Shown: positions 3,521 through 24,230, numbered from the stretch's first letter. The stretch is DNA of 64,000 bases from an uncultured archaeon (GCA_964508365.1 CAZDTP010000008.1:1-64000); one strand, 5' to 3'. Translations and numbers: made by a program. The notes: a model not told the origin generated them from the sequence alone.

Positions 3521-4822
3521 TTGTTACTTAAATTTCATGATCTCTTACCGGAAGAATTAAAAACAAAGTATTTTGACTTTAAGTTCCGTGATTACCCGGA
3601 CGATGAATTTTGTAAAGAATTGTTAAAACAAACGATCTTATCCTATAATAATTGTAAGTATTATAAGGATAAAATTTGCAACAAATTCGATTTTACAATT
3701 CCTGATGAAATATCGATTGATAATTTAGAAACAATCCCTTATGTTCCCACAGACATTTATAAAAAATCAGGAAATCGAACCCTAAGTCTATCCAAAGTAC
3801 CTCTTGAGAATATAGCACTCTTTTCGTGTTCATCTTCTACTACAGGAGATCCTTCGATAGTTCCCAGAACAGTAGAAGATTATGATCAATTGCAGTATAA
3901 TTCAATTAAGGTTTTTACAGAATTTTTTGGATGGGAAAAATTAAATATAGAATCTAAAAGATGTGTTGCTTTTAATTTTTCGCCAGATCGTTTATTCATG
4001 TCAATAATGGCAAAAAGAAGTGTTAAAGGATTTGAATATGTTGACAAAACTCGGTACTATACAGCATGCATGAATAAACCTTGGGAATTTTATGGATATG
4101 AGGAATATTTGGTAAAAATGAAAATTTTAAAAACAATATGGGCAATTATATCAACTTTTTCACTGAGAGGGGGCTTCATTTTGGATGTTACTAAAATGTT
4201 GAAAATGATAAAAAAAATTAAAGAAACGGGACATTGGAAAAATACCGAGGTAAGTAAAATTTTATTAGGTGGAAGTCCACTCTTAATGAACAACATGTTT
4301 GAGAAGAGATTGTTAAAAGAAAATGTGTTTATTGATCTTGATGGAATATCTCTTGTCGGTTGTGGTGGTGGTGGATGGGATGGTGTTAAAGGCGAAGCAA
4401 AGATGGATGAGGTAAATAAAAGTAGATTCATTGAATATTATGAAAAAGTGTTTAACATTAAACCAAAGGATATTAGGGATATTTATGCATTTACAGAGTG
4501 TCCTACACTTTTTGGAGGTCATTGGTCTGAGAAATATCAAGATTTTTTACTACACTGCCCTGATACTACTCGAATAATTATAAGGGATCTTGAAAATTTA
4601 GAACCCGTTAGTATTGGAGAAGAAGGACTTTTGGAAGTTCTTACACCTTATGGCGTTAATGGTAGTATAAATCAAGCAGTCTTAGTTGATGACATTGTAG
4701 AATTAATCTCAAAAAATAAGTGTCCAGAGTGTGGTTATAAAGGAGCTACCTTTCGAATAATAGGGAGATTAAAAAATGCCCAAGGAAAAAGCTGTTCTTC
4801 TTTAATTAACTGGATCTATTAG
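3521..4822 (+). CDS. LuxE-like acyl-protein synthetase / ANL-fold adenylating enzyme
   Basis: P-loop-like SSSTTGDPS, DIYAFTE, GLLEVLTP, and C-terminal FRIIGRLKNAQGKSCS resembling the LuxE GR..A..KGC acyl-Cys tail; RBS GAGGT before the TTG start. Confidence 0.7.
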   Translation: MLLKFHDLLPEELKTKYFDFKFRDYPDDEFCKELLKQTILSYNNCKYYKDKICNKFDFTIPDEISIDNLETIPYVPTDIYKKSGNRTLSLSKVPLENIALFSCSSSTTGDPSIVPRTVEDYDQLQYNSIKVFTEFFGWEKLNIESKRCVAFNFSPDRLFMSIMAKRSVKGFEYVDKTRYYTACMNKPWEFYGYEEYLVKMKILKTIWAIISTFSLRGGFILDVTKMLKMIKKIKETGHWKNTEVSKILLGGSPLLMNNMFEKRLLKENVFIDLDGISLVGCGGGGWDGVKGEAKMDEVNKSRFIEYYEKVFNIKPKDIRDIYAFTECPTLFGGHWSEKYQDFLLHCPDTTRIIIRDLENLEPVSIGEEGLLEVLTPYGVNGSINQAVLVDDIVELISKNKCPECGYKGATFRIIGRLKNAQGKSCSSLINWIY

Positions 4823-4900: not shown

Positions 4901-5467
4901 TCAATAGGGTATTATAGACATCATAAGTATAGGAATTACTAGAAATATTATAGGAATTACTACCATAGGTATAATATTCATGACAATTCCAAACACCGCA
5001 AACACACTTCCAACCTTCTCAAGAGTATTTATCGGTTCAAATTTTCCAGCTTTACTACTATGTGTTCTGGAAAGTATTCCAAATACTAAGCCAGCAATAT
5101 GAAGAATTATAACGATAATCAACCCTACCAGTCCACCTATCAGTCCACCAGGATAATAAGGATAATACATTGATGGTATATAAAATCTGAATAAATTAAG
5201 ACCCCCAGAACTTAAACCGACACCTGTTAAAGTAAGCGATACAATAGAGAAGGCAAAGCACCTTTTTGAATGAAGTCCTGGCCCTCCTACTTTAATTGAT
5301 TTTGACTCGTAAACGGGAACTGATCTAACTGTTGATGACACTTGATTTTCTTCAGCTCTTACTTGAGGAGCTTCAGGAGGAGGAGTGGATAGGATAACAC
5401 TTCCACAGCTTGCACAAAACTTTTGGTCTTGGGATTCTAACTTTTCCCCACAATTTGGACAAAACAT
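4901..5467 (-). CDS. Zinc-ribbon + 3-TM membrane protein, tandem copy 1
   Basis: MFCPNCGEKL..FCASCG, PPPEAPQVRAE linker, GGPG..SK, FGILSR; ATG at 5467 after GTGAG is preferred over the track TTG at 5482. Confidence 0.8.
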   Translation of the reverse strand: MFCPNCGEKLESQDQKFCASCGSVILSTPPPEAPQVRAEENQVSSTVRSVPVYESKSIKVGGPGLHSKRCFAFSIVSLTLTGVGLSSGGLNLFRFYIPSMYYPYYPGGLIGGLVGLIIVIILHIAGLVFGILSRTHSSKAGKFEPINTLEKVGSVFAVFGIVMNIIPMVVIPIIFLVIPILMMSIIPY

Positions 5468-5575
5468 AATCTCACTTTCCAATTTTTATTAATTTAATTA
5501 CGTTTGATTGTGTTATTAATTGATTGGGTCTATTAAATCTTTTATTATTCATTCAAATATTTCCAGATTAGAAAT

Positions 5576-6133
5576 TCAGATAAATGGATAATAAAGAGGC
5601 ATAGAAGCTACTACAATACTAATAGGAATTAATACAAGAGGTATAACATTCTGGACAATTCCTATCACCCCGAGCACGCTTCCAACCCTCTTAAGAGTAT
5701 TTTGCATTTCACGTTTTCCAGCCTTACTACTGAATACCCTAGAAAGGATCGCAAATATTAAGCCAATAGAATAAAGAACCAAAGCTATAATCCGCAACCC
5801 AGGTCCTCCAGGAATTCTAGGAAACACATATATTGGTATAACATCTCTGAGAACTTTAAGAAACTCAAAAACAAAACCGATAACTGCTAAAACTATCGAT
5901 AACAAAGCGAAAGTAAAGACCATTTTTGAATAAAATCCTGGTCCTCCTACTTTAATTGGTTTTGATTCGGAAACGGGAACTGAACTAACTGTTGATGATG
6001 TTGATACTTGATTTTCTTTAGCTCTTACTTGAGGCGCTTCAAGAGGAGGAGTGGATTGGATTTCACTTCCACAGCTTGCACAAAAACAATGGTCTTGAGA
6101 TTTTAACTTTTCCCCACAATTCGGACAAAACAT
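5576..6133 (-). CDS. Zinc-ribbon + 3-TM membrane protein, tandem copy 2
   Basis: Same architecture and near-identical N-terminus as copies 1 and 3. Confidence 0.8.
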   Translation of the reverse strand: MFCPNCGEKLKSQDHCFCASCGSEIQSTPPLEAPQVRAKENQVSTSSTVSSVPVSESKPIKVGGPGFYSKMVFTFALLSIVLAVIGFVFEFLKVLRDVIPIYVFPRIPGGPGLRIIALVLYSIGLIFAILSRVFSSKAGKREMQNTLKRVGSVLGVIGIVQNVIPLVLIPISIVVASMPLYYPFI

Positions 6134-6274
6134 AATCTCACTTTCAGATTTTTATTAATCTATAATGATCGGATCTTTAATAATTGGATTTATTAAATCT
6201 TTTATTATTCCTTCAAATCGCTCTAGGTTAGAACTAATTTTAATTATAAAGAAAAGAAATAAGAAATTTCATAA

Positions 6275-6838
6275 TCAATAGATTATAGGAACTATTATTA
6301 TTAGAGAAATTAGCATAATTATCAATATTATAGAAACTACTACAAGAGGTATACTATTAATGACAATTCCAAATATCGCAAACACACTTCCAAGCTTCTC
6401 AAGAGTATTTATCGGTTCCGATATTCTAGCTTTACTACTATTTGTTCTAGAAAGTATCCCAAATATTAAGCCCGTAATATTAAGAATTACAGCTATAATT
6501 AACCCTATCACTCTAAAAGAATAATAAGGATAATAATAAGAATATGGAAATAAAATTCCCCTAAAAATACTAGCCCCAAAAGCATAACCGACACATGCTA
6601 AAGCAAGCGATACAATAGCGAAGGCAAAGGACTTTTTTGAATGAGATCCTGGCCCTCCTACTTTAACTGGTTTTGATGGGTAAACGGGAACTGATATAAC
6701 TGGTGAAGACACTTGCTTTTCTTCAGCTCTTACTTGAGGAGCTTCAGGAGGAGGAGTGGAGTGGATTTCACTTCCACAACTTGCACAAAAACTTTGGTCT
6801 TGGGATTTTAACTTTTCCCCACAATTTGGACAAAACAT
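6275..6838 (-). CDS. Zinc-ribbon + 3-TM membrane protein, tandem copy 3
   Basis: Same architecture and near-identical N-terminus as copies 1 and 2. Confidence 0.8.
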   Translation of the reverse strand: MFCPNCGEKLKSQDQSFCASCGSEIHSTPPPEAPQVRAEEKQVSSPVISVPVYPSKPVKVGGPGSHSKKSFAFAIVSLALACVGYAFGASIFRGILFPYSYYYPYYSFRVIGLIIAVILNITGLIFGILSRTNSSKARISEPINTLEKLGSVFAIFGIVINSIPLVVVSIILIIMLISLIIIVPIIY

Positions 6839-7033: not shown

Positions 7034-8440
7034 TTATTCATCCAAAAGTCCATGTTTTTTCAGCCCTTCCTTCATATCAGCTTGAAATGCACCAGGGGTC
7101 CCTTCTAGGAACGCGTTAGTTATATCTTGATTTTCAACTATTAGCGAAGCTCTTTTATTAGCTTTCTCTTCTGCAAGTGAAGAAATTGCCATTTTTGCCA
7201 TCTGCTGAAACTGAGGAGGGGACAATTGTATGAGATCATCAAAAATTCTCTCTGTTTCGTGATTCCATTCTAAACCGGATTTACTTATTTCCTTTGGTTT
7301 AGCTGATTCGAGCCCAAATTCGCGACTGGTCACAATATCATCCATATATTGTTTTAATGATTCTACATATCTGCGAGATTCTTCTTTGTCTAACACTATT
7401 GCTTTTTTTGCCCACTCTTCACAATAGTTACACTCATTACACATCGCTAAGCAATTCTGTTTTTTAAAAAAGTCTATAAATCCATCCAATTTGGTGTTAT
7501 CAATTATCAATTTTGATTTAGATTCTTTTCCAATTGTTTTAGTTAATTTCACATTGGGGTCTTTTTGTTCTAACCCCCCAAAGGACATTGAGAACCCTTG
7601 AATTATGTCTATAAGATTTCCGTCATATTTTCGTGAAGAAAAAGCTTTTACAGATCTAGTAATCCATTGTGTTGACATGCGACGTCCAGCTATTTTAAAA
7701 TTATCTATTCCAATCGCTTCATAGTGAGCTAAATCTTCAGGCCGAATCCATCTTGCTTTGATAACTTCTGTTGGATCTGAGAATTTGATAATGCTACAGT
7801 TTAAGATACATGTATCAATATAGTTACGCTCAAATTGTTGGTATGTTTGTGAAGCATGCCCTAAAGTATTATAGTGATAATTTCTAAAGGGACATTGGTA
7901 TAGACACCCATCAGTTAAAAGTAAAATAATTTTACATTTCACAGCTTTTTGAATTTGTTCCAATGTCTTGAAATCACGGTTTATCATTACCCCAAGAGTA
8001 ATTTCATCTGCCCCTAGCTTTTCATAAAACTTAGCTCGAGTAACACTATTCACATCAGCAATGGTAGAGACACGAATTTTTAGTTTTGGAAATTGTTCTT
8101 TAATAAGCTGTATTAAAAATGGAATGGTTACTGTAACACTATCAGCTCCAATATCACTAATCCACTGTAAATATTTAAGAAGTTCTTTATGGTAATGTGG
8201 ATCATATTCCAAATTATTCATACACGGAGCATTTAATAAATATGAAAACTCCATGCCTTTTTGATGTAGTTTTTGTATGTAATCAGCAATAAAATCTTCA
8301 GTTACTTTCTGTAGTAAAAACGAGGGACGCCCCCCACCTACAATTGAGTGGTCCGAAACTCCGTACACTCCAGTTACAGGATATTGAGCCAATTCCTCTA
8401 TGAGCTTTAAATCCCAATTTGTAGCTACGTGAAGTTTTAT
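7034..8440 (-). CDS. Peptidase U32 family Fe-S protein (UbiU/UbiV/TrhP/RlhA superfamily) with C-terminal ~80-aa helical module
   Basis: IVGGGR, YLLNAPC, GCLYQCPFR, WIRPED, FKIAGR and CLAMCNECNYC motifs; the frame opens at ATA 8440 (IKLHVATNWD) directly after RBS GGTGAG and an in-frame TAA. Confidence 0.85.
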   Translation of the reverse strand: MKLHVATNWDLKLIEELAQYPVTGVYGVSDHSIVGGGRPSFLLQKVTEDFIADYIQKLHQKGMEFSYLLNAPCMNNLEYDPHYHKELLKYLQWISDIGADSVTVTIPFLIQLIKEQFPKLKIRVSTIADVNSVTRAKFYEKLGADEITLGVMINRDFKTLEQIQKAVKCKIILLLTDGCLYQCPFRNYHYNTLGHASQTYQQFERNYIDTCILNCSIIKFSDPTEVIKARWIRPEDLAHYEAIGIDNFKIAGRRMSTQWITRSVKAFSSRKYDGNLIDIIQGFSMSFGGLEQKDPNVKLTKTIGKESKSKLIIDNTKLDGFIDFFKKQNCLAMCNECNYCEEWAKKAIVLDKEESRRYVESLKQYMDDIVTSREFGLESAKPKEISKSGLEWNHETERIFDDLIQLSPPQFQQMAKMAISSLAEEKANKRASLIVENQDITNAFLEGTPGAFQADMKEGLKKHGLLDE

Positions 8441-8457
8441 TTATCTCACCTTACTTA

Positions 8458-8847
8458 TTATTTTTGGATAGCTATATCATGAGCTTTGGCATTTAGTGGC
8501 AATAATGGTGCACATGCCATTAATTTGGAAGGATCACCGTCAACTTCATATTTTCCAGCCATTGTCGCTTCAATAGGATTAGTTTCTCCTGAATTTACCC
8601 TTTTAATTACATCGAAATTCGTTTTATGAATAATTTTTGGTACATCAGGTCCACTATATTCGCCCATTCCCCAACTCATTTTATCATCTTCGATTAATTG
8701 CCAATAATTCATCTCTGGACGATCATTGATTTTATATTGAAAAACTACTGGTGCGATGGGTTTCAATAGAGTTGATAAATCGGGTAATTCGTTATAGGCT
8801 TTCATGAAGCTATTAAGATATGCTTCCCACTCTTCCTTTGTGTCCAT
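8458..8847 (-). CDS. SCP2 sterol-binding-domain-like lipid carrier protein
   Basis: 129 aa with NPIEATMAGKYEVDGDPSKLM, matching the SCP2 pattern P..A.M.GK..V.GD...LM; RBS AAGGAGGT. Confidence 0.7.
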   Translation of the reverse strand: MDTKEEWEAYLNSFMKAYNELPDLSTLLKPIAPVVFQYKINDRPEMNYWQLIEDDKMSWGMGEYSGPDVPKIIHKTNFDVIKRVNSGETNPIEATMAGKYEVDGDPSKLMACAPLLPLNAKAHDIAIQK

Positions 8848-8910
8848 TTTAAGTTTTACCTCCTTATTATTTTGTTATATTATTTTTTACATTATACATG
8901 TTAGAAAAAA

Positions 8911-10083
8911 TTACGTATAAAATTCAAGTCCCGCTTTTGCACCCATCAATAAGAAATCTACCATAGTTCCATTATAGTCATTTTCGATCTTATAGTACAT
9001 TCCATCTGGTGTGAAAGTTACACCATAAATGAACTTATGAACATCGCTTTGGAAAGGAGATTCCTCAACAAATTTCTGTATTAATGGGTGAAAATGAACT
9101 GGAACTTCTTTGACATCATGGCATGCTACACCAAAACATAATCGTTCAATTTTTTCAGAATCCCAGCTAAAAGTAAAGTTAAGGTGTGCAGCATTACAAC
9201 AACTCTCCATTATTTCTCTAGATACTGACTTAAATCCCAGGTCCTCCACAAGAGTTTTACACTTCTCATAAGTAGCTGTAGAAGTATCCTTTACCATGAA
9301 ATAAATGTTTGTTGTATTTTTCAAGAAATCAAAAGCAAATAGCGCTAATGTAGTTAAACTATGTTTTTTGAAGTAGGTTTCATATTTTTTAATACTTTCA
9401 GGGATATATTTCATCAAAAAAAGCGGATTGATTGATCCTGGTATGATGAAAGGCCAAATTTTTGAGAATCCTTTCCGCGCATCTATATCGACTCCATAGC
9501 CCATAATATCAAATGTATCCAATGTCTCTAAAATCATTTTATGGATAGGATGCCCATTTTTTTCAATTAATCCTTCATTTAAAGCTATTTTATAAGGATC
9601 AGGATTATGGGGGATCATCATTTCCACGTATCTTACGGATACATCCCTTCTTTCAACTGGTTTTGTTGTGGTTCTAATTGAAAGAGAGGAACCAGAATAA
9701 AATTCCTTGAATGCATTTAACGCTTTCCAAATAGCTTCTTCATTAAAATTCACTTCAGTAAGGATACAAAGTTTTTGAATATCCTTAACCATCTGATTAA
9801 GATCATTATTAAGTTTGAATTTGGAATTCACTTTTGGTAAATATAAATCGACATCAACCCCAAGAGTTTTCAAATCCTCAATCATGGTTGGTTGAAAAGC
9901 TGGTGGCGTAACTTCAAACAGCGCAACAACGAGATCCATTTCAGTTACAGATTTTCCATTTCGTTCCATACATTTTTTTTCTGATGTTTCAAGAAGCATA
10001 GGCCTTATAACAGGTCTAATCATTTCTGGAATTTTTAAAACCATGTCTTCGTATAATACTTTATGTTTTGGTTGCCAATTCAT
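8911..10083 (-). CDS. ABBA-type soluble aromatic prenyltransferase (NphB/CloQ-like) with N-terminal ~80-aa helical module
   Basis: NphB/CloQ-like motifs in the expected order: DPY..AL.EGL...GHP, YGVD...KGFSKIW, FDF.K.TTNIYF, SWDSEKIERLCFGV, IYGVTFTP..MYYKIENDY. Confidence 0.85.
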   Translation of the reverse strand: MNWQPKHKVLYEDMVLKIPEMIRPVIRPMLLETSEKKCMERNGKSVTEMDLVVALFEVTPPAFQPTMIEDLKTLGVDVDLYLPKVNSKFKLNNDLNQMVKDIQKLCILTEVNFNEEAIWKALNAFKEFYSGSSLSIRTTTKPVERRDVSVRYVEMMIPHNPDPYKIALNEGLIEKNGHPIHKMILETLDTFDIMGYGVDIDARKGFSKIWPFIIPGSINPLFLMKYIPESIKKYETYFKKHSLTTLALFAFDFLKNTTNIYFMVKDTSTATYEKCKTLVEDLGFKSVSREIMESCCNAAHLNFTFSWDSEKIERLCFGVACHDVKEVPVHFHPLIQKFVEESPFQSDVHKFIYGVTFTPDGMYYKIENDYNGTMVDFLLMGAKAGLEFYT

Positions 10084-10160
10084 TTTCTGTTTTACCTTTT
10101 TACATAATTTTAGTTTTAACTTTCTTTAAATCATACTATTTAACTTTTCTATGAACAATT

Positions 10161-11570
10161 TTATTGCTTATTTTCAATTATTTCAATTTCTTCCTTTTCA
10201 ATACTTTCCACTTCATGGTCATGATCATTTTCATGCCAACAAAATGGAAATGAACCAAAGAAGTCACCTGTAATATATTCTGCTGTTACTCTACAACCAC
10301 CGCCACAATACTCTAAATGATGACATGAAGCACACTTTCCCTTAATCTTTTTTCTATCTCGAATATCCTTGTAGAGCTGTGAATTTAATACATCTTCAAA
10401 ATTATCCACTAATGCGTTTCCTAGCGTCAATGTTGTAGGATATCCGGTGGGGTATATTGTTCCATCTATACCAATACCCATCATCGTTCGGCAAGCCAGA
10501 CATCCTACACCCCATTCAATTGCAGCCATTTCTTTATCGTTTTTAGGTGATTCCATAAATGGTACCATTTCATATATTTCATAAGCAGGTAATGTTCCCG
10601 ATTTGCCTTTTCTTATCGTTTCAATGGCGTGTTTGTATTTAAAATCGTACATCTTTTTGTATTCTTCCGTATTGAGGCCAATTTCACCCCAGAATTCAGC
10701 CGCTCGATTTTGTTTAACAACGCATCTAAAATATGGTTGAGAACCCCATTTTTCCGATAATACTTTGAGCTCTTCTAACTCGTTTATGTTATGTTTCATG
10801 ACAGTGATTGAAGAACATACAAAAATTCCATATTTTAAACATAAATCTATTGCCTTCTTAGCATAACCTAAAGAATTGGGAAACCCACGAATTTCATCAT
10901 TTTTCTTGGGATTTACACTATCAAAACTTACAAATACATGACTAATATTATTCTCCTTGCACATTTTGGCGAAATTCTCGTTAAAACTGACACCATTGGT
11001 TATTAAAGCATGGATGTAATCCTTCTCTTTGCAAAATTTCATGATTTCACCGATATCTTTACGTAAAGTAGGTTCACCACCGAACCATACGAAACAAGCA
11101 TGCCTACCTTGATTTCGCAAACCGGTTTCAACATTTTCTATAATCTGACACCACTGTTCGGTTGATAATTCTGGTCGGGCTATTTGATCATCTGCTGCAC
11201 AATGAATACATTTTTGATTACATATATCGGTAATATACAAAGCAAAATGTATGTTTCCTGGATGAAAACCTCTTTCAAGTTTATCCCATGAAACTTTTAG
11301 TCTATCCTTAATTTCCTTAAGTTCAATGTAGCGTTCTACATCTATATCTAACGATTTAAGATCCTCAACCATTATAGGCTTAAATGCTTCAGGGATAATG
11401 TCAAATATTCCTGTGACCACATCAGCGTCATTGATATAAGCGCCATTTCGCTCGAGGCATCTTTTTTCAGCAGCTTTTATCATCTGAGGTTCAACTGAAG
11501 GACGGAAACCTTGAGGCATTTGTTCTACTATTCTACCGAATAAATCTTTAGTTTCTTTTTCCCATTCCAT
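10161..11570 (-). CDS. Radical SAM/SPASM protein B with N-terminal helical module
   Basis: CNQKCIHC, GGEP, GCLACR and CASCHHLEYCGGGCR; RBS GGTGA. Confidence 0.9.
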   Translation of the reverse strand: MEWEKETKDLFGRIVEQMPQGFRPSVEPQMIKAAEKRCLERNGAYINDADVVTGIFDIIPEAFKPIMVEDLKSLDIDVERYIELKEIKDRLKVSWDKLERGFHPGNIHFALYITDICNQKCIHCAADDQIARPELSTEQWCQIIENVETGLRNQGRHACFVWFGGEPTLRKDIGEIMKFCKEKDYIHALITNGVSFNENFAKMCKENNISHVFVSFDSVNPKKNDEIRGFPNSLGYAKKAIDLCLKYGIFVCSSITVMKHNINELEELKVLSEKWGSQPYFRCVVKQNRAAEFWGEIGLNTEEYKKMYDFKYKHAIETIRKGKSGTLPAYEIYEMVPFMESPKNDKEMAAIEWGVGCLACRTMMGIGIDGTIYPTGYPTTLTLGNALVDNFEDVLNSQLYKDIRDRKKIKGKCASCHHLEYCGGGCRVTAEYITGDFFGSFPFCWHENDHDHEVESIEKEEIEIIENKQ

Positions 11571-11585
11571 TAAAATTCACCAATT

Positions 11586-12950
11586 TTAGCAATTTTCATG
11601 TTTATGATCGTTTTTATGCCAGCAAAATGGAAGAGAAGCTAAAAAATCACCAGTTTCGTTTTCGGCATGGACTCTACATCCTCCTCCGCACATATCAAGA
11701 TGATGGCAAGTAGAACATTTTCCTTTTATTTTCCTATCCCTGATAGCTTTGAACATTTCGGTTTCCATAATCTCCCCCCAGCTTTGCTCAAGAATGTTGC
11801 CTAAGATTAAATCAGAGGGATAATCGCAAGGGAATACATCTCCATTGGTATCAATTCCGGAAATTGAGCGGCAAGCTTGACATCCTGTGCCCCATTCAAT
11901 TGCAGTCCTTTCCTCATCATTCCTAGGACACTCCATGAATGGCACCATATCCCATGTATAGAATTTATTGAGAGAAGAAGCTTCCCCTTTTCTGATAGCC
12001 TCTATAGCGTGTTTATATTTGAAATCATAGAATTGCCGATATTCATCTATATTTAAGCCGATTTCGTCCCAATTTAAATCCGCGGAACGCTGTTTGATCA
12101 GGGGTCTGTAAAAGGGAGTTACGCCCCTAGATTGGAAATATTCCCTTAACTTATCTAATTCATCGAAGTTCTCTTTTTGTGCAGTTACATTAGCAATGGT
12201 AAAAAGCCCATATTTTGCAGCTAAATCTAACGCTTTTTCGGCCGCTTCGTATGCTTTTGGATACCCTCTAATTTTTGCAGCCCGTTTAGGATCCGTACTA
12301 TCATAACTAATAAAGACATGGCTCATTTTAGCTTCTGCGCATATTTTCGCCAGTGCATCATTAAACAAAATTCCATTTGTTGCAAGTGCTTGATAATAGC
12401 CCTTTTCACCGCAATATTTTATTAAATCTTTAAGATCCTTGCGAATAGTAGGTTCTCCTCCAAACCATATATAACACCCTTGACGACCTCGTTTTCGTAA
12501 GCTTTGCTCAAGATCCTCAATAATTTCGATCCAGGTTTCCGTAGGAAATTCTGGACGTTTTTCCATCACAGCGGCAGCACAATGGAGACAATTTTGGTTG
12601 CATCGATCCGTTAGATATATAGTAAAGTGGTAAACACCAGGTAGAAAAGCACCACTAATTTCGTCCCATGTACGCGCAAATTTTTGTCGAATTTCAGAAA
12701 GTTTGATATAACGATCGGTATCGATTCCAATGGTTTTTAAATCTGCTACAACTGTAGGCTGAAACGCTTCGGGTGTGATTTGAAATAGAGCTGATAACAA
12801 ATCATCTCTACTTACAAATCCAGAATTCCTAAGCGTTGCTGTTTTTTCAGCAGCTTCACGTAACATTAGCTTTACTGAAGCACGAAACCCTTCAGGTGTT
12901 AAATCAGTAATCTTCATATATAAATCTTCAATTTCTTTATTCCATTCCAT
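11586..12950 (-). CDS. Radical SAM/SPASM protein A with N-terminal helical module
   Basis: CNQNCLHC, GGEP, GCQACR..FPC and CSTCHHLDMCGGGCR; ATG at 12950 after RBS GGTGA. Confidence 0.9.
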   Translation of the reverse strand: MEWNKEIEDLYMKITDLTPEGFRASVKLMLREAAEKTATLRNSGFVSRDDLLSALFQITPEAFQPTVVADLKTIGIDTDRYIKLSEIRQKFARTWDEISGAFLPGVYHFTIYLTDRCNQNCLHCAAAVMEKRPEFPTETWIEIIEDLEQSLRKRGRQGCYIWFGGEPTIRKDLKDLIKYCGEKGYYQALATNGILFNDALAKICAEAKMSHVFISYDSTDPKRAAKIRGYPKAYEAAEKALDLAAKYGLFTIANVTAQKENFDELDKLREYFQSRGVTPFYRPLIKQRSADLNWDEIGLNIDEYRQFYDFKYKHAIEAIRKGEASSLNKFYTWDMVPFMECPRNDEERTAIEWGTGCQACRSISGIDTNGDVFPCDYPSDLILGNILEQSWGEIMETEMFKAIRDRKIKGKCSTCHHLDMCGGGCRVHAENETGDFLASLPFCWHKNDHKHENC

Positions 12951-13043
12951 TTTTTTCACCTTTTTTTAAATTTAAGCTCGTAAAAAATTTTATTTTATTA
13001 TATAAAATTATAATGAAATCAGTAAAAAATCGATATTTCATTA

Positions 13044-13724
13044 TTATCTTCCCTCCAACCGATGGATGTTATCGTTAAAATCAGAGAATATACTATTGTT
13101 TTTGGAAGGAAGGTGATTATTAGTCGAAAATTTTTGAAAAATAGAAGCAGTATTTTTATATTGGATATTTTTCTTGCTAGAATTATGTAAGTAATTAAGT
13201 TTATCATGTTTCATCTTAATTATACTACTGGAATATCCACGCTTACTGTTAAATTGATTGGTGTTGATTCTACTCTTCTGATAAAAGTTAAATTCAACAG
13301 AATTCTCATTGATTATAGTACCTGAATCATTTTTCAAGCCTATTATTAAATTTGAATTTAGAGATGATTCTTCTAGTGTTCCTTCAATCTCAAGAATATA
13401 TGGTTCTGCATATATTTCTAAATAATTTTTTATTAAGAATGCATTCACATAATACTGATAACCGATTCTTTCAATGAAAGCAATGATATTAATAATAATA
13501 ATAATGTCAATCAAATGACCCGTAGAGAAGTGGAAAATGATATTGCTATTGGGAAGAAAAGGAAGGAAAAGTGAGGAATTAGAATTGAAATAATCATTGA
13601 ATAAAGAATTTAGCAATGAAAAATCTCTAAAAAACATATAAATTAATGTAATTGGAACACTCGCTAAAAAAAAGAGGATTATTAGTATTCTTTTTAATAA
13701 GCTAATCTTTTGAGTAGAATGCAT
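13044..13724 (-). CDS. Hypothetical protein with two N-terminal TM segments
   Basis: 226-aa ORF with hydrophobic N-terminus and Asn/Ser-rich tail; no family recognised. Confidence 0.4.
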   Translation of the reverse strand: MHSTQKISLLKRILIILFFLASVPITLIYMFFRDFSLLNSLFNDYFNSNSSLFLPFLPNSNIIFHFSTGHLIDIIIIINIIAFIERIGYQYYVNAFLIKNYLEIYAEPYILEIEGTLEESSLNSNLIIGLKNDSGTIINENSVEFNFYQKSRINTNQFNSKRGYSSSIIKMKHDKLNYLHNSSKKNIQYKNTASIFQKFSTNNHLPSKNNSIFSDFNDNIHRLEGR

Positions 13725-13910
13725 AACACTAGAATTTTTTTTTAATGGATATTTTATCTTTCAATCATAACTTCATGTTGATATATTTTAAATAATAAAT
13801 TAAAATAGCATTTAAAAATTTCGAATCAAATTAGGTAATCCATAAAAATTAGTGGAAAAAGAACTCTTCGAATCTAACAAATAACTTTCATATATTTTAT
13901 TAACAGAATT

Positions 13911-15410
13911 TCATAGTATCATTTTTTCTTTCTTTTCAGGAGACTTATTCCCTGTTGTCATCATTGTGAGTGCTGTAATTAAAAAGAGTAGTTTATTAAA
14001 GTAACTAATAGTAGCACTAGAAAATATTTTTGTATCGTAATTTATAGCATTATAAAAAAAAGACATTTTAGTTTGTTTAAAAAATTCTTTAAGTTGCGGA
14101 AATGAATTATATTTTAAATTTATTTCAAAAGATTTAGGAGATTCGTATGCTGGGGAACCTGGAAAAATATGAAAAGGTTCATTCATTATAGTAATAGGTT
14201 TTGATTTTGTTTTACCATATTTTAACACACTTTTAATAGCAAAATTAAAATCTTTTTGAACATCTAACCTAGTTTGGAATGGAAAACCAACCGTTAACCA
14301 AATTCTTAATGTCCTTCGGAATAAATTTGCATTTCTTATTAGGTCTTCAATTTGATTTTTTGGAAATTTAAATGTTGGATCGCATATTTTCGCTATTCTT
14401 TGATGAACTTTTGCAGACAAAGTTCTAGGAGAAATACTAACTGATGAAGATCTACGAGGAAAAGTCTTATAAAATATTTTCCACATTTCCTTAGGGAAAG
14501 GTAACCGCCAAATCTCTAGATCTCCGCCAATATCTAGTTTTTCTTTTTGAATCAAACCAAACAATGTTTTCCAATATTTGAGATTAGCCGGATAAGTGCC
14601 ATGCCCAAAAAATAAACTTGGAACTTTATACATATCTACTATAGATGTAATATCCTCAATTACTTTTTCAGGACTCATGAGAATGACTTCATTTCGACCT
14701 GCTAGGTGTTGTAAGGCTCTTTGACCTCCTCCACAAAAGGGACAGTTAAATGGACAACCTCTTCCTATTGGAAGATTGAAAGAGATTCCCATTATTTTTC
14801 TGCTACATTCAAAATATTGTTTTGCATTTTTTAGAATGGATGTGTTTGTAAAATTTAAATTATCTAATGTTTTTGCAGTGTAGGAAAGAGAATTAGTTTT
14901 TATATAGTTAGATGAGTTCCGATAAGAAAAATTGGGAACAGAATCTAAAGATTGATTCTTGTTAATATTTTGAACATACTTTAAAAGAGGGATCTCACCC
15001 TCTCCTCTTATTATTCCATCAATTGATTTGTAATCTTTTAAAATTTGAGTATGGAAATACGATGCACTAAACCCACCTAGTACTACTTTGGCATTAGGTT
15101 TTACTTCCTTTATGATTTTAGCAATCTCAATAGCTCCATGTGCATTATGTATCCAATGTAAATCTATTCCACATATTTTAAAATCAATAGTTTTAATATA
15201 GTCTATTAATGACCAATTAGGGTTTAAATATTGCTCTAAAGGATAATTTATTATTTTTACTCCAAAACCTTCTCTCTCAAGGAAATCAGCAATAGCAAAA
15301 ACCCCCATTGGAATAAAAATAAATGCAGTTCGAACAGATTTTGCTTTTTTATCATTATCTGGTTTTAGTACTCTAGGCGGATGAATGAAAATTACATCGT
15401 AACTTTTCAA
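13911..15410 (-). CDS. B12-binding radical SAM protein 1
   Basis: PMG, VVLGG..AS, IIRGEGE, GRGCPFNCPFC; lacks the usual GxES motif. Confidence 0.85.
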   Translation of the reverse strand: MKSYDVIFIHPPRVLKPDNDKKAKSVRTAFIFIPMGVFAIADFLEREGFGVKIINYPLEQYLNPNWSLIDYIKTIDFKICGIDLHWIHNAHGAIEIAKIIKEVKPNAKVVLGGFSASYFHTQILKDYKSIDGIIRGEGEIPLLKYVQNINKNQSLDSVPNFSYRNSSNYIKTNSLSYTAKTLDNLNFTNTSILKNAKQYFECSRKIMGISFNLPIGRGCPFNCPFCGGGQRALQHLAGRNEVILMSPEKVIEDITSIVDMYKVPSLFFGHGTYPANLKYWKTLFGLIQKEKLDIGGDLEIWRLPFPKEMWKIFYKTFPRRSSSVSISPRTLSAKVHQRIAKICDPTFKFPKNQIEDLIRNANLFRRTLRIWLTVGFPFQTRLDVQKDFNFAIKSVLKYGKTKSKPITIMNEPFHIFPGSPAYESPKSFEINLKYNSFPQLKEFFKQTKMSFFYNAINYDTKIFSSATISYFNKLLFLITALTMMTTGNKSPEKKEKMIL

Positions 15411-15544
15411 AATGACTACCAGAAAATTGGATCTAAGCTTTTTGTTAATTTAATTAAGATTTAAGATAATATTGAATAGAATTATTTAAATTATAGTTAA
15501 TATAGAGAAATTAAAATACTTTGTTTATTCCAATAAAATTTTAA

Positions 15545-15907
15545 TTGAAAATAATAATATCTTGTCCAAGTTGTGGTGCTCAATTAGAAATACCTAACCA
15601 AATTGTTTTTCAAAAATGTGGAAGTGAGCTTCCAGCTTTTTCCAAGAGTTCCGTATTAGCAAAAAGATATTCAGTTTCAACAGAAAATCACAAGATGCAT
15701 CAATTGCTGCAAAAATTAGTTATAATACCTGGTTTACGGCTTCTTTCAAAAAGATGCTTTGGATTTGGAATATTATCTAGAGTAAATAGCGGAAAAGCAA
15801 AGGAATTGGAACCTGAAAGTTCTATTTTGAAAGCGAGAAGTGCTTTGGGAGTAATAGGTCTTGTTATTAACTCCATCTTAGTGGTAACAGCAATTATATT
15901 GATATGA
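15545..15907 (+). pseudogene. Degenerate, internally deleted paralog of the 4.9-6.8 kb zinc-ribbon membrane genes
   Basis: CPSCG retained but the third Cys is lost (VFQKCG); SKRCF is joined directly to GFGILSR, skipping the first TM region. Confidence 0.55.
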
Positions 15908-15955
15908 AATTCACTATAGAATGAAAACTCAGTTCTAATTTTAAATAAAAAAAAA

Positions 15956-16807
15956 TTAAATTTTGTTCTTGATTTTTGTCCATACATAACCATGGACATC
16001 AAAAAGTATAAAAATCGCTATTGTACTAACTATTAGACAAAAAATGAGAAGATCCCAGGAAGTTGGAGGATGACCAAACAATGCAGTTAGATTGATAACA
16101 AAATTACTCAACCAAGGCCAAGTTCCCGGAAGTGGTTGTCCGTTTAAAAGGAAATAAAAAAAATCTTCAAGTGTACTGTATTGTAAAAGCGTTCCAGCAA
16201 TAAAAATATTCCAGCTTTGCCTTTTAGTGCCTCCACCTAATTTCCATCCAATAGCAAGAATTAGATAAAAGAATGCCATCAATAGCCCCCAAAAAGACAA
16301 ATAATACATTGTATTATCAACTGCACCCGCCCATAGATCATCAATTGCAAAATTCACAAGAATGCCTATAGGGATAATAATTACTACAAATAGAATTGCT
16401 ATTATTAGAATACGATGATTAACTCTCTTTGGTTGTAGAAAAAAAGCAGGAATTAATCCAAACAATGATAATTGTAAGTATAAAAAAAAGCCTGGTGGAT
16501 TTCCAAGAATTACATAAAATATAATTGGTATTCCATTAGCAATCAAGAATAAAATTAGAGCAATTATTAACCATTTTTTATCAGATTCTCCTCTTTCAAT
16601 TTCCTTATTACCTGCAAGATACATGAATCCAAGAGTTAAAATTATATTTAAACTTAATAAGCTTATAAGCCAAAAAAGCCGTATACCAATTCCTACGCTT
16701 GGATTCTCAGCAGCCCAATCTACCTCAGCTGTTATTATTATTAGAAGGATAAATATGGCAAGAACAATTAATTTAATTTTCCATGAATTAGATTTATTCT
16801 CAGACAT
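15956..16807 (-). CDS. Hypothetical multi-pass membrane protein
   Basis: About 8 hydrophobic segments; LEDFFYF and WPWL motifs; family not recognised. Confidence 0.7.
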   Translation of the reverse strand: MSENKSNSWKIKLIVLAIFILLIIITAEVDWAAENPSVGIGIRLFWLISLLSLNIILTLGFMYLAGNKEIERGESDKKWLIIALILFLIANGIPIIFYVILGNPPGFFLYLQLSLFGLIPAFFLQPKRVNHRILIIAILFVVIIIPIGILVNFAIDDLWAGAVDNTMYYLSFWGLLMAFFYLILAIGWKLGGGTKRQSWNIFIAGTLLQYSTLEDFFYFLLNGQPLPGTWPWLSNFVINLTALFGHPPTSWDLLIFCLIVSTIAIFILFDVHGYVWTKIKNKI

Positions 16808-17063
16808 AATGACTCATCACTTGTTTTTTATCTTTATTTTATTAATTTTATTTAAGTAATTAGGATAAACCTTTTGGTGTTTAAATATTATATAGCAATT
16901 AAAATTAATATAAAAGAAAATTTTTCATAATTATATTAAAATTTTTTATTTAGATAAAAAATATTAAACATTACAAGTTCTGAGTTAGGGGTAAATTAAT
17001 TAATAAATACAATAATTAGCATGAAAATGATAAATATGTGCTAAACTAAACGGAGAGTAAGAA

Positions 17064-18185
17064 TTGAAATCAAAAAATAAGGATTCAACGAATTTTCCCC
17101 TAAGTGGATATGCTGGTTATGGGATAACTAAATTTTTTTCCTCAGTTAAAAGACTTTCATATTTACTCGCAAGAATAGAAACGCTATTATCACATGATGA
17201 GATTAACGATCTTTCAATTGAAAGACCAATTTATATTGTTGGTCTTGCACGAGCGGGAACAACTATTATTCTAGAAATGTTAAGTAAACATCCCTTTTTA
17301 GCTTCGCATAAGTACAGACACTTTCTTATGCCATATTTCCCTCATAGGTTTAGTCGAATTATTGACCAGTCAAGATTTTTCACTAAACCTAGGGAACGTG
17401 TCCATAAGGATGGAATATTTGTCACCCGTGAAAGCCCTGAAGCTGTAGAAGAAATATTTTGGCAAGACTTCTTCACCAACAGTCATAATGAAGAAAATTC
17501 AAATATTTTAAGTAGGACTATGTCTAAACCCAAGTTTGAACAATTTTATCGAAATCATATACGAAAACTTCTATTAAATCAAAGATGTTCACGTTATTTG
17601 GCAAAAAATAATTACAATATAACCAGATTAGAATATTTAGATCGAATTTTTCCAAATGTTAAGTTTTTATTGATAATACGCAATCCAGTAAATCAAATCG
17701 CATCTTTAATTAAGCAAACAAGTCTTTTTAGAGAAATGGAAAAAGATAATCCTCTTTTAATTGATTGGCATAGAATAACTGGACATAGTGAGTTCGGTCA
17801 TTATCAAAAATGTATAAATACCGGCGACAATGAACTCATTCATAAAATTCGTAGATTATGGAAAAATGAAAAAACTTATGTAAAAGGTTGGGCTTATTAC
17901 TGGTCTTCAATATATGATTATGTAATGAATCTTCTTGAAACAAATAAGAAGATTAAAGAATCAACTCTTATTATCAGGTATGAAGATTTATGTGAAAATC
18001 CTGCAGAAATAATAGATAAAATACTTGAACATACTGAACTACCTTTAGATAATTTCGAGAAAATAAAAAAGTATTACATTAGACATCTTCATAAACCTAC
18101 ATATTATACTCCAAATTTTTCTAATCAAGAATTACTAGATATCTCTGAGATTACTAATAAAACAGCATCTCGATATGGATATTAA
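17064..18185 (+). CDS. PAPS-dependent sulfotransferase family protein
   Basis: 5'-PSB motif IVGLARAGTT, 3'-PB motif IIRNP...IAS, and IRYEDLC.NP. Confidence 0.85.
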   Translation: MKSKNKDSTNFPLSGYAGYGITKFFSSVKRLSYLLARIETLLSHDEINDLSIERPIYIVGLARAGTTIILEMLSKHPFLASHKYRHFLMPYFPHRFSRIIDQSRFFTKPRERVHKDGIFVTRESPEAVEEIFWQDFFTNSHNEENSNILSRTMSKPKFEQFYRNHIRKLLLNQRCSRYLAKNNYNITRLEYLDRIFPNVKFLLIIRNPVNQIASLIKQTSLFREMEKDNPLLIDWHRITGHSEFGHYQKCINTGDNELIHKIRRLWKNEKTYVKGWAYYWSSIYDYVMNLLETNKKIKESTLIIRYEDLCENPAEIIDKILEHTELPLDNFEKIKKYYIRHLHKPTYYTPNFSNQELLDISEITNKTASRYGY

Positions 18186-18332
18186 TGAGATAATGGAAAT
18201 ATTCGAATTAATACTAAAAGTTTAGCATTTAGATTAACCAGTAATCTTTTTTACTAAAAAATATACTCAATTGATATAACTTATAAATATAATGTATTTG
18301 CTTCATAATTACAGATAAAATAATTGATGGTT

Positions 18333-19463
18333 TTAGTAAGAATTAGCTCTATAATTTTTATTTACTTCTTCTTTTTCAGAATCAGTTAATTGTCGTATAA
18401 CCTTAGCAGGTGAGCCAAAAGCAATAGAAAATGGAGGAATGTCATCCGATACTAATGAATTTGCTCCAATAATCGATCCTTCACCAATTGTAACTCCTGG
18501 TAATATAACTGAATATGCTCCTATTCTTGCATTTTTACATATTTTAATTGGCCCAAAACTAAAACTTCCATGTTGTATATTCATTGCATTATGAGTAAGT
18601 AATTTTACGCCTATGCCACATCCACTACCCTCTTCAAATTCTATTAATTCAGGTAATAAAGGATCAGGTAATGCTCTTTGAGAAATAGAGCAATTTTTGC
18701 TAATCTTCATTCCTGTAAATCGAAATAACATATTTCTAGCTCTTGGCCATCCGGTTAAATAGGTAATAATTAAGGAGATTAAATGATTAAAAGCACCTCG
18801 TACAAACCATGCTACAGAATACCCTTTAGACTGAAGATATTTTGCTATAATCAACATTGGTACAGGAGTGAAAACAAATTCATCTGTTTTTATATTAATA
18901 TAAGTTATTTTATCCTTAATTTCAATATCAAATTCAGGTCTTCTATGTTTCCAAATTTTTCTAGCTTTAATTAAATCTTTAAAAAAAATTAGGAAATCAA
19001 TATTTACTAAAAGCAGAAATAAACTAAGAGCAAAGGTCATAGGTAAAAAGAGTAAAAGTAACATTAGTCTTACATTAAGTGATATATCTTGATTAAACAA
19101 GACACTAGCATATGTATAATGAACTGCGATAAAAGTAACTATAACAAACCCTAATAAACTAAAAACATACATAATTGAACCAGTCATATGTTTTACTTTT
19201 GCTAAATTATATCCTAAGACATATAATACAAGTAAAAGCGAATAGCCAATGAAAATTCCACCATAAATATATAAATTATAATTATAGAAGATTGCTAATA
19301 ACCAAGGTCTTAATAATTTATATAATAGATCGATCCAGGGAATTGGCAGAAAAATATGACTTATTATTAAAAGTACAATTAGTAATGCGCTTAAAATTAA
19401 AAAAAAAAATGAAATTACAAATCCTTTCGTCCAAAATTTCATTTTACCTGAACCCTTTGACAT
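18333..19463 (-). CDS. Membrane protein fused to a hexapeptide-repeat (LbH) acyltransferase domain
   Basis: 4 N-terminal TMs; C-terminal IGAYSVILPGVTIGEGSIIGANSLV..DIPP..IAFGSPAKVIR. Confidence 0.85.
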   Translation of the reverse strand: MSKGSGKMKFWTKGFVISFFFLILSALLIVLLIISHIFLPIPWIDLLYKLLRPWLLAIFYNYNLYIYGGIFIGYSLLLVLYVLGYNLAKVKHMTGSIMYVFSLLGFVIVTFIAVHYTYASVLFNQDISLNVRLMLLLLFLPMTFALSLFLLLVNIDFLIFFKDLIKARKIWKHRRPEFDIEIKDKITYINIKTDEFVFTPVPMLIIAKYLQSKGYSVAWFVRGAFNHLISLIITYLTGWPRARNMLFRFTGMKISKNCSISQRALPDPLLPELIEFEEGSGCGIGVKLLTHNAMNIQHGSFSFGPIKICKNARIGAYSVILPGVTIGEGSIIGANSLVSDDIPPFSIAFGSPAKVIRQLTDSEKEEVNKNYRANSY

Positions 19464-19573
19464 TGTCTTAATTTTGTATCAATTAATTATTTAATCAATC
19501 TACTATTTATGTAGAATAATAACACATCATCTTCTAATAATATATAAATTTTCTGTTATTCCTTTGATAAGAA

Positions 19574-20326: not shown

Positions 20327-20418
20327 ATGATTTAATATAGCAAAGAATTTTCCGTTTGATTGAAAAATAATCGATATTTACAACTTTCAAGTTATTAAAA
20401 ATAAATGATAAAGGAGAA

Positions 20419-21876: not shown

Positions 21877-22031
21877 AAATATTTGCCTAAATCTGTTGAA
21901 TTCTTCATCAGATTTAACAAGATTCCCATTTAAACGGGAGAAGTTTTTATTATATCTTTTCAATATAATAAAGAATATATATGTATTAGATCATTTTTTT
22001 CTTAATATAAATAATATTAAGTGAAAATTTA

Positions 22032-24139: not shown

Positions 24140-24230
24140 TTTATAACATGTGGGTTTATCTCAAAATCTTATAAGAAATTAATTCGTTACTTTGTTATTG
24201 ATAGATAACAAGGATATTAAATTCGAAAAC

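Follow-up and report, generated by a model that had tools for sequence, protein, structure and literature searches.

The same helical module of approximately 80–85 aa is carried by four enzymes that are encoded together in one operon of an uncultured Asgard archaeon, and profile and structure comparisons indicate that it is a member of the uncharacterised DUF2621/PCP_red superfamily. Our preferred reading, which is tentative and falls a little short of an even chance, draws on analogy with known recognition domains: the module may be a shared recognition (adaptor) domain, with affinity for the hydrophobic pathway intermediate that the SCP2 lipid carrier presents. We infer both that the modules bind something in common and what it is that they bind. 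The window is the whole stretch of 64,000 nucleotides that was analysed, and the relevant features in it are listed here.

7034..8440 (mechanical ORF from 8392), minus strand: U32-family protein (Pfam Peptidase_U32, 8.5e-15)
7037..7273, minus strand: module copy 4, at the C-terminus of U32, behind a short K/E/S/G-rich linker (genome profile E 1.6e-33)
8458..8847, minus strand: SCP2 lipid-carrier protein, free-standing, without module (Pfam SCP2, 7.6e-6)
8911..10083, minus strand: ABBA (Orf2/NphB-type) aromatic prenyltransferase, PTase (Pfam PTase_Orf2, 1e-51, residues 94–378)
9823..10083, minus strand: module copy 3, at the N-terminus of PTase (genome profile E 1e-42)
10161..11570, minus strand: radical SAM/SPASM enzyme B, rSAM B (Pfam Radical_SAM and SPASM)
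11310..11570, minus strand: module copy 2, at the N-terminus of rSAM B (genome profile E 5e-43)
11586..12959, minus strand: radical SAM/SPASM enzyme A, rSAM A (Pfam Radical_SAM, 6e-22; SPASM, 2e-10)
12690..12950, minus strand: module copy 1, at the N-terminus of rSAM A, residues 4–90 (genome profile E 3e-41)
13044..15410, minus strand: upstream co-oriented ORFs for a 226-aa protein of unknown function and a B12-binding radical SAM protein, neither with a module

The intergenic gaps in the operon are 15–77 bp. The rSAM A ORF extends for 457 aa from a GTG at 12959, while its orthologues start at the Met of the MEW motif. It is AhbD/NirJ-like at the family level, but lies far below the NCBIfam equivalog cut-offs for these enzymes (the top hit, AhbD, scored 132 bits against a cut-off of 500), and its closest solved cores are SuiB, anSME, SkfB and CteB (Z 24–25). 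rSAM B is a paralogue that is 50% identical to rSAM A. The mechanical ORF of the U32 protein starts at a TTG (8392), and comparison with the N-termini of orthologues placed the conserved N-terminus at an ATA codon (8440–8438). This protein is a candidate O2-independent hydroxylase of the UbiU/UbiV/TrhP-like type. The SCP2 gene lies directly upstream of it, so a single operon pairs U32 with SCP2 as in the UbiT-UbiU-UbiV arrangement. Across Asgard homologues, SCP2 is 58–95% identical, and the alignment (95 homologues collected) contains 12 invariant and 48 nearly invariant columns in 129 residues. The genes for the 226-aa protein and the B12-binding radical SAM protein occur in the same order in locus L011, where the products are 230 and 503 aa, and with this conserved synteny they are probable members of the cluster. 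Of 201 genomes sampled from the phylum, 13 contain the operon, as do 5 of 15 in the same genus, a patchy distribution that identifies it as an accessory trait.

The first-pass annotation had proposed that one module of about 80 aa recurs on rSAM A, rSAM B, PTase and U32, and this was confirmed by gapless alignment, BLASTP and a genome profile search. The four copies align without gaps over 76–87 residues, with 32–46% identity to copy 1 and 25–46% over all pairs. Pairwise BLASTP, with the search space set at approximately proteome size, gave E-values from 2e-26 (rSAM A and rSAM B) to 2e-5 (rSAM B and U32), and the proposal thus survived the possibility that the four segments might not align significantly. 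Between the unrelated enzymes the similarity is limited to the module, and SCP2 did not match any of the four enzymes in BLASTP. W3, P19, E35, R41, D50, P60, A62, F63, L71 and K72 are invariant in the four copies. When a four-copy profile was used to query the whole 4.07-Mb genome, exactly four places were returned, and the next match had an E-value of 0.37. That the genome has the module in this operon alone, on three unrelated folds, is a point in favour of an adaptor. That only SCP2 lacks the module, as had also been claimed, is true of this five-gene operon; it is not true of the expanded operons in sister genomes, where a B12-radical-SAM protein, a second U32-like protein and two rSAM-SPASM-SCP2 fusions are module-free even at E<=100. 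The first two of these count against an adaptor. The other two carry SCP2 at their C-termini, as if a covalent carrier replaced the module.

The AF2 model of the module is a four-helix bundle (pLDDT 91) with helices at residues 5–16, 20–40, 48–58 and 61–73 and one two-residue beta-bridge. W3, P19, R41, D50 and P60 are conserved family-wide and sit at the first short strand or near predicted helix starts, while many positions are kept within an enzyme class and differ between classes. As no Cys, His or Ser is conserved across the module family, the module is considered non-catalytic. A covalent, ACP-like carrier role was rejected because no Ser is invariant and rSAM B has Ile in place of the Thr in the TP motif. 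The modules are acidic, not hydrophobic (pI 4.6–5.0, net charge −3 to −7), which makes a membrane-anchoring role unlikely.

Searches of the PDB with sequence profiles from the four-copy and family alignments returned nothing significant (best E 0.026–0.13, to unrelated or histone-fold chains). The helix-strand-helix core has a weak sequence resemblance to Lon and RuvBL lids and to histone folds (E 0.13–1.3), and the best structural matches were AAA+ lid domains, among them those of BchI (1G8P/6L8D; Z 8.4–8.6 over 72–78 residues), the Rpt3 C-domain (2DZN; Z 7.2, rmsd 1.7 Å over all 57 residues) and the MCM and RuvBL lids. However, AAA+ lids follow a P-loop ATPase domain, and the module hosts have no AAA domain in Pfam. 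The likeness of the model to these lids is one of shape, not demonstrated homology, with Z-scores that are within the chance range for small helical bundles.

A kinship with DUF2621 and PCP_red, which had been suggested in the annotation, was borne out at the superfamily level by sub-threshold DUF2621 matches, intermediate members and structure matches. DUF2621 (PF11084) is the only Pfam family that was matched by all four copies, which cover model positions of approximately 50–138 and leave the first 50 or so of the 139 positions unmatched. The copies scored 13.3–21 bits as whole proteins and 13–24 bits in six-frame searches, all below the GA of 27.7, with rSAM B the best of the four at 21–24 bits. 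Free-standing relatives of 85–96 aa pass this threshold at 31–36 bits (P0169, 31.1; P0170, 35.9), as does a U32 protein with tandem modules in locus L015 (46.8 bits). As the copies fall below the threshold that their relatives pass, they represent a sister family or outlying DUF2621 members, not formal members. The nearest ESM-Atlas clusters were also DUF2621 proteins (feature score 0.94–0.96; structure TM 0.85–0.90). Our literature searches found no paper that mentions DUF2621, a family without a described function.

The relationship with PCP_red (PF08369; 45 positions, GA 32.5 bits) appears more distant. It did not match the four copies at E<=10, and the best match to it in the whole genome was in an unrelated place (E 0.25). 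Intermediate members of the module family match both DUF2621 and PCP_red, at 24–28 bits, and distant members reach 21–28 bits with the latter. The PCP_red NMR structures 2L09 and 2KRU matched the module with Z-scores of 6.4 and 5.3 (VIA), respectively, and an rmsd of approximately 3 Å over 57–60 residues; in Foldseek they gave a TM of 0.53–0.54 by target and an rmsd of 3.1 Å. The Atlas model of BchZ gave a TM of 0.66 and an rmsd of 1.4 Å over 63 residues. These values would fit a fold in common with PCP_red, but for a small helical domain they are middling. PCP_red covers only the first 45–63 or so residues of the module, and the host enzymes are unrelated. In the nitrogenase-like (bacterio)chlorophyll reductases, it forms the helical C-terminal domain of BchB/ChlB and of BchZ and so, like the module, is appended to an enzyme with a large hydrophobic substrate. 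In the papers on DPOR that we consulted, no description of the role of this C-terminal domain of BchB was found.

The way in which the module is attached differs between hosts. In radical SAM enzymes, it is separated from the CxxxCxxC motif by 42 residues in 59 of 64 proteins, and in the full-length AF2 model of rSAM A (pLDDT 87, pTM 0.84, no segment below pLDDT 50) the connection to the core is structured, which together suggest integration with the host, not a loose tether. In PTases, too, the spacing is fixed and the connection structured. This rigidity, along with the strong class-specific conservation, would be expected of a host-intrinsic accessory domain, with each copy acting as lid, stabiliser or dimer clamp on the enzyme that bears it, by packing on it or dimerising it, and no partner held in common; PCP_red, as a C-terminal part of the nitrogenase-like BchB and BchZ subunits, offers a parallel, and clusters with only one module pose no problem. 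We nevertheless consider this unlikely, as it does not explain why unrelated folds of one operon are all tagged when homologous enzymes elsewhere lack the module, how the module can switch between the N- and C-terminus within one enzyme family, or why there are flexible U32 linkers, many free-standing copies and recurrent SCP2 fusions. In U32 proteins with a module, the linkers are of low complexity and vary in length from −1 to +20 residues, and where SCP2 is fused behind a module it hangs on a K/E/N-rich low-complexity linker of approximately 35 residues. These linkers point to a beads-on-a-string layout.

When a profile built from the copies was used to list domain partners, at least ten partner types were found. 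The same four fusions occur in proteins that their sources name as Loki-, Hod-, Hermod-, Heimdall- and Odinarchaeota, while the taxa named outside Asgard come from Atlas cluster labels and a small number of contigs. Modules are placed at the N-terminus, at the C-terminus, in tandem or, in many proteins of 80–100 aa, on their own, and the PTase module, N-terminal here, is C-terminal in P0148 and P0150. Such freedom of position is what an independently acting domain typically shows. P0381 is a natural tandem-module protein, to which single modules align at the second copy only. Long STAND/TIR proteins, with 4–9 weak stretches each, were excluded from the partner list as spurious matches (Pfam finds TPR_10/TPR_12 repeats in them). 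Other partner types, among them methyltransferase, 2Fe-2S ferredoxin, HpaB-like, VOC/glyoxalase, PNP_UDP_1 and LuxC, have no obvious link to a lipid carrier and so count against an adaptor to the carrier. Three bacterial clusters, L008 (type II PKS), L017 (aromatic tailoring) and L024, contain a single module and no Pfam-annotated SCP2 within 6–9 kb of it, so SCP2 cannot be the universal partner of the module. One bacterial gene for a U32 protein with a module adjoins a chorismate-mutase/DAHP-synthase gene.

The ferredoxin partner bears on two further alternatives. In P0234, two modules precede a thioredoxin-like 2Fe-2S ferredoxin, and of the four enzymes that carry the module here, three are Fe-S enzymes, as might be expected if the module recruited a different protein shared by its hosts, such as an Fe-S maturation factor or, as reductant, a ferredoxin or flavodoxin. 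This is very unlikely, as the prenyltransferase, methyltransferase, VOC and PNP partners need no electrons and the B12-rSAM proteins of the same operons are without a module. A module-bearing ferredoxin could equally dock on module-bearing radical SAM enzymes if modules bind one another, homotypically or heterotypically, and tagged enzymes assemble as a metabolon, which was the first of the roles put forward in the annotation. That nearly every enzyme of the operon bears one copy, and that two modules per chain recur (the L015 U32 tandem, P0234, P0254 and P0173), would fit such docking. So would the function of histone folds and AAA+ lids, both of which the helix-strand-helix core resembles, as modules for contact between proteins. 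Against this, several clusters have a single module, free-standing copies would terminate chains and the module looks rigidly attached in radical SAM enzymes. On balance, docking of module to module also seems unlikely.

The preferred adaptor reading gains from a functional link between the module and SCP2, which is supported by several independent fusion architectures. At least four are represented. Sister Asgard genomes, which have two or three U32 paralogues, encode U32-module-SCP2 fusions, and in their expanded operons SCP2 is often fused directly behind a module. Elsewhere, P0171 is SCP2-module, P0254 is SCP2-module-module, P0227 is the C-terminal part of U32 followed by module-SCP2, and P0173, from a bacterial MAG, is U32-module-SCP2x3-module. 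Co-folding of the SCP2 and U32 module alignments scored 0.00 and gave no answer, and counts neither for nor against binding. The charges of the module and SCP2 are not complementary, both being acidic, and this, with the class-specific conservation and the apparent integration in radical SAM hosts, is a further point against an adaptor.

The docking domain to which the module had been likened is a useful comparison only in part. A homologous, autonomously folding, non-catalytic domain is present on unrelated enzymes of one pathway, but it is not of the classical PKS/NRPS type. Docking domains of PKS and NRPS are short terminal helices of approximately 20–40 aa that have flexible linkers and a cognate partner. 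The module is a folded bundle of 85 aa (pLDDT 91) with a structured, fixed-spacing connection in radical SAM enzymes, and the PKS analogy fails. The best-fitting analogy is with the RRE, or PqqD, a small non-catalytic domain found on, or encoded beside, unrelated RiPP enzymes of one pathway. Its logic is the same and the N-terminal position matches that in SPASM enzymes of the SuiB/CteB type. The fold is not: the RRE is a winged helix with a three-stranded beta-sheet that binds a leader peptide, whereas the module is a four-helix bundle, and the module copies did not match any PqqD or RRE family in Pfam at E<=10. True RRE-like recognition of a peptide, in a RiPP pathway of which the SPASM maturases, the prenyltransferase and the U32 'peptidase' would be the enzymes, could be argued from the rSAM A core, as the closest solved cores are RiPP maturases with an RRE where the module is, and from the action of ABBA prenyltransferases on peptides in cyanobactin pathways. 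However, gaps of 15–77 bp leave no room in the operon for a candidate precursor peptide gene, the predicted fold is all-alpha bar one bridge, SCP2 and the UbiU/V-like context point to a lipid, and the bacterial contexts are polyketide or aromatic clusters. We therefore consider a RiPP pathway extremely improbable.

The hallmarks of UbiT-UbiU-UbiV-type systems are a prephenate-dependent hydroxylase activity and a [4Fe-4S] cluster bound by four conserved Cys. The Asgard operon shares with UbiT/UbiJ and UbiU-UbiV the pairing of SCP2 with U32, an anaerobic setting, the probable handling of a prenylated aromatic substrate and, in its sister genomes, SCP2-U32 fusions (PMC6747719, PMC10990095). The E. 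coli SCP2 proteins UbiJ and UbiT bind intermediates of ubiquinone or play an accessory part for U32 hydroxylases; UbiJ is the organiser of a complex of several enzymes, and a fusion of ubiT with ubiU has been described (PMC6747719). Unlike the E. coli Ubi metabolon, for which no common enzyme tag has been described, the Asgard operon has an extra domain on most of its enzymes, and it includes a soluble ABBA-type prenyltransferase and radical SAM enzymes.

Under the adaptor reading, a four-helix module with a small beta-bridge and an AAA+-lid-like shape, predicted to fold autonomously and to be non-catalytic, would have been put by domain shuffling on most enzymes of an O2-independent pathway. 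With an ABBA prenyltransferase, UbiU/V-like U32 proteins, radical SAM enzymes and a UbiT-like SCP2 carrier, this pathway is probably one in which an aromatic lipid receives prenyl and hydroxyl groups and other modifications. By the logic of RRE/PqqD, the module would give each tagged enzyme affinity for the same SCP2-presented intermediate. In a broader version, which we consider rather doubtful, the module might serve small-molecule lipid pathways in general as a hand-off domain, the lipid counterpart of the RRE. Tagged enzymes would then dock on loaded SCP2 or on each other to form a soluble O2-independent metabolon for a new prenylated aromatic (quinone-like) Asgard lipid, and the module would do the same job in many anaerobic bacterial clusters.

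We found neither the module nor the operon described in the literature that we searched. To our knowledge, the cases of carrier-based channelling described so far are ACP/PCP systems, RiPP leaders and the Ubi complex of E. coli. Should the module prove to be a shared adaptor, it would be the first described recognition domain that couples unrelated lipid or small-molecule enzymes to a non-covalent carrier, and DUF2621/PCP_red would gain a function. The module could also mark a family of anaerobic biosynthetic clusters in genomes. The operon itself gives a hint of O2-independent synthesis, in some Asgard archaea, of an aromatic lipid that is prenylated and hydroxylated, a matter relevant to the energy metabolism of these archaea.

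Five minus-strand genes are closely packed within 7034-12959, with intergenic gaps of 15-77 bp, and the catalytic or carrier domain of all five proteins was verified using Pfam:

11586-12959, minus strand: radical SAM/SPASM enzyme A (rSAM A)
10161-11570, minus strand: radical SAM/SPASM enzyme B (rSAM B), a paralogue of A at 50% identity
8911-10083, minus strand: Orf2/NphB-type ABBA aromatic prenyltransferase (PTase)
8458-8847, minus strand: SCP2 protein, 129 aa
7034-8392, minus strand: U32-family protein (U32), mechanical ORF with a TTG start at 8392

The rSAM enzymes are closest to AhbD/NirJ-type SPASM proteins but fall far short of every NCBIfam equivalog cut-off (132 bits against 500). The first-pass annotation had reported a single helical module on four of these enzymes, and this sharing was confirmed as real and far above chance level: the N-termini of rSAM A, rSAM B and the PTase and the C-terminus of U32 align without gaps and share 10 invariant columns, and every pair aligns significantly in BLASTP (E values of 2e-26 to 2e-5, in a search space of about proteome size). 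Between unrelated enzymes the similarity ends at the module boundary, and a profile of the four copies matched these four places only in the 4.07-Mb genome.

The TTG start at 8392 would cost U32 16 conserved residues. The conserved N-terminus (KLHVATNWDL...) opens with ATA at 8438-8440 (minus strand), in frame right behind a TAA stop and with a GGTGA Shine-Dalgarno-like motif 5-6 nt upstream; at this position orthologues in sister genomes have GTG (locus L011) or ATG (L013). Judging from the sequence, either translation starts at ATA or the start codon has been lost.

The genome is that of a Loki-type Asgard archaeon, and the sources of the closest homologues label them Lokiarchaeota or Promethearchaeota; the same four fusions are also seen in proteins labelled Hod-, Hermod-, Heimdall- and Odinarchaeota. 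The operon has a patchy distribution across the phylum, being found in 13 of 201 sampled genomes, 11/40 of its own family and 5/15 of its own genus, and each genome that bears it has 2 to 10 copies. As sister genomes hold a larger operon, the one in the window is a minimal five-gene version. The larger order is rSAM A, rSAM B (both with the module), a B12-radical SAM enzyme (without), PTase (with), a 383 aa U32-like protein (without), a U32-module-SCP2 fusion and U32 (with). Two rSAM-SPASM-SCP2 fusions inside an expanded operon (L014:7398-8975 and L014:9007-10515; SCP2 C-terminal) have no module even at E≤100. The earlier observation that only SCP2 lacks the module thus holds for the five genes in the window but not for larger sister operons. 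The U32-module-SCP2 fusions (approximately 670-690 aa) are at L011:10048-12099, L012:4256-6262, L013:8317-10359 and L014:12924-14993. In three of these four, a Met lies within a few residues before the conserved motif TKEEW, behind a K/E/N-rich linker, and TKEEW is the start of the free SCP2 in the window (MDTKEEW...). Internal initiation in the triple fusion could also yield a free carrier, or fusion or fission could be recent. One sister genome encodes a U32 with two tandem modules plus two free SCP2 genes.

A LuxE-like acyl-protein synthetase gene (3521-4822, plus strand) is convergent to the operon, as in the syntenic L011:14920-16236, and metagenome contig L007:5420-10850 contains LuxE-LuxC followed by a LuxC-module-rSAM-SPASM fusion. 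These neighbours hint at a fatty-acyl or aldehyde branch tied to the chemistry of the operon. Immediately downstream of the operon is a tandem array of three paralogous genes for zinc-ribbon membrane proteins (MFCPNCGEKL...; 4901-6838, minus strand), and a fourth, related gene is upstream (15545-15907, plus strand); L011 has two similar genes behind its operon. The surroundings of the operon include several genes for B12-binding radical SAM enzymes (13911-28906), of which that at 13911-15410 has a syntenic counterpart upstream of the L011 operon. The B12-radical SAM gene found between rSAM B and PTase in expanded operons is absent from the window.

For all four copies the match to Pfam DUF2621 was confined to its C-terminal part, at 13-24 bits against a threshold of 27.7, and none matched PCP_red. 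Searched exhaustively with the profile, 1.84 billion representatives yielded 233 proteins at E≤1e-3. Among these, free-standing relatives of 85-100 aa score above the threshold of DUF2621 and touch PCP_red as well, and the closest ESM-Atlas clusters consist of DUF2621 proteins, PCP_red being present in some. The DUF2621/PCP_red kinship suggested at first pass stands at superfamily level. A confident AlphaFold2 model of the module (108-sequence alignment; pLDDT 91, pTM 0.80) has helices at residues 5-16, 20-40, 48-58 and 61-73, a short helical turn at 79-82, and a two-residue beta-bridge joining 2-3 with 45-46. Its best solved structural matches are AAA+ lid domains, MCM and RuvBL lids among them, with Z 8.4-8.6 over 72-78 residues for the BchI lid and Z 7.2 (rmsd 1.7 Å across all its 57 residues) for the Rpt3 C-domain. 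Solved PCP_red domains rank next (2L09, Z 6.4; 2KRU, Z 5.3), and a BchZ Atlas model superposes at 1.4 Å over 63 residues. As such Z values are middling for small helical bundles by the tool's own grading, we go no further than a resemblance in predicted fold to AAA+ lids and kinship with DUF2621/PCP_red at superfamily level. Weak PDB profile matches of the module alignment (E 0.13-1.3) to Lon/RuvBL lids and histone folds (chains 1f1e, 3k1j and 8eu9) all fall on the core of helix 2, short strand and helix 3. The core pattern A-E-x2-A-x2-R-x4-V-x3-D recalls the helix-strand-helix motif common to histone folds and AAA+ lids. W3, P19, R41, D50 and P60 are conserved family-wide, lying either at the initial short strand or close to where predicted helices begin. 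Because the family alignment contains no conserved Cys, His or Ser (one Cys is conserved within the rSAM-B and PTase classes only), the module is predicted to be non-catalytic and to bind no metal cluster.

Many further partners were found beyond this operon type. The module is C-terminal in PTases P0148 and P0150, follows SCP2 as one copy (P0171) or two (P0254), and forms U32-module-SCP2x3-module in a bacterial protein of 1104 aa (P0173). In P0178 it lies between LuxC and rSAM-SPASM; it is also carried by a class-I methyltransferase (P0207) and sits behind an HpaB-like domain (P0269) or a PNP_UDP_1 fragment (P0168). Atlas clusters with the module include VOC/glyoxalase proteins (121 members) and U32 proteins (321 members, 63% bacterial, most commonly Bacillota). 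In P0234, two modules precede a thioredoxin-like 2Fe-2S ferredoxin; that the module recruits a redox partner is nevertheless very unlikely. The raw hit table misleads anyone listing partners: TIR/STAND conflict-system proteins of 850-1600 aa (P0156, P0161, P0175, P0191 and others) were rejected, their many weak stretches being TPR_10/TPR_12 cross-matches.

Free-standing copies sit in anaerobe-type biosynthetic clusters, among B12-radical SAMs, cyclases and aldehyde oxidoreductases (L006) or with a type II PKS set (L008). A methyltransferase-borne copy lies amid HemN-like radical SAMs, a P450 and a halogenase (L017). In the bacterial L024:7135-10467, a U32-module gene is near a chorismate-mutase/DAHP-synthase fusion gene; hydroxylation by UbiU/V is reported to be prephenate-dependent (PMC10990095), and this neighbour fits prephenate as oxygen donor of U32 hydroxylases. 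As L008, L017 and L024 have a single module each and no annotated SCP2 nearby, SCP2 cannot be a universal partner, and such bacterial clusters argue against an SCP2-only module. Docking of modules to one another, part of the original proposal, is unlikely, at about one chance in five.

In radical SAM enzymes, the module is 42 residues from CxxxCxxC in 59/64 proteins (33-46 in distant ones), a full-length AlphaFold2 model has no disordered linker (pLDDT 77-91 over residues 71-110; pTM 0.84), and many module positions are conserved within one enzyme class and differ between classes. These predictions and alignments favour a module integrated with its host enzyme. They also support a reading in which the module is a lid or dimerisation domain intrinsic to its host, perhaps like PCP_red in BchB/BchZ; we give this reading about one chance in five. 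In U32 proteins, by contrast, variable K/E/S-rich linkers flank the module, and a fused SCP2 is tethered by a low-complexity linker of approximately 35 residues.

The module is distributed as a self-sufficient accessory domain: its hosts have unrelated folds, it can be N- or C-terminal, repeated in tandem or free-standing, and the clusters bearing it are always ones that tailor hydrophobic or aromatic molecules. What it recognises may be the SCP2 carrier or an intermediate held by it, as module and SCP2 share a chain in at least four independent architectures, radical SAM proteins with their own SCP2 lack the module, and SCP2 conservation is exceptional, as expected of a hub (58-95% identity across homologues; 60 of 129 positions invariant or nearly so). 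In SPASM enzymes the module occupies the exact place of the RRE in SuiB/CteB, though a RiPP-type RRE itself is extremely improbable. E. coli has SCP2 proteins that bind ubiquinone intermediates; there, UbiJ acts as organiser of a multi-enzyme complex and UbiT accompanies the U32 hydroxylases UbiU-UbiV, with a ubiT-ubiU fusion known (PMC6747719). Given the fusions, the linkers, the RRE-like position and this precedent, we tentatively favour, at a little under even probability, a shared adaptor.

A literature search found no paper on DUF2621, the module or the Asgard operon, and the domain family is listed as a DUF. RiPPs and carrier-protein systems are known to follow the logic of a shared recognition domain; here, the module would be a common adaptor that acts like an RRE, but on a carrier-held lipid.
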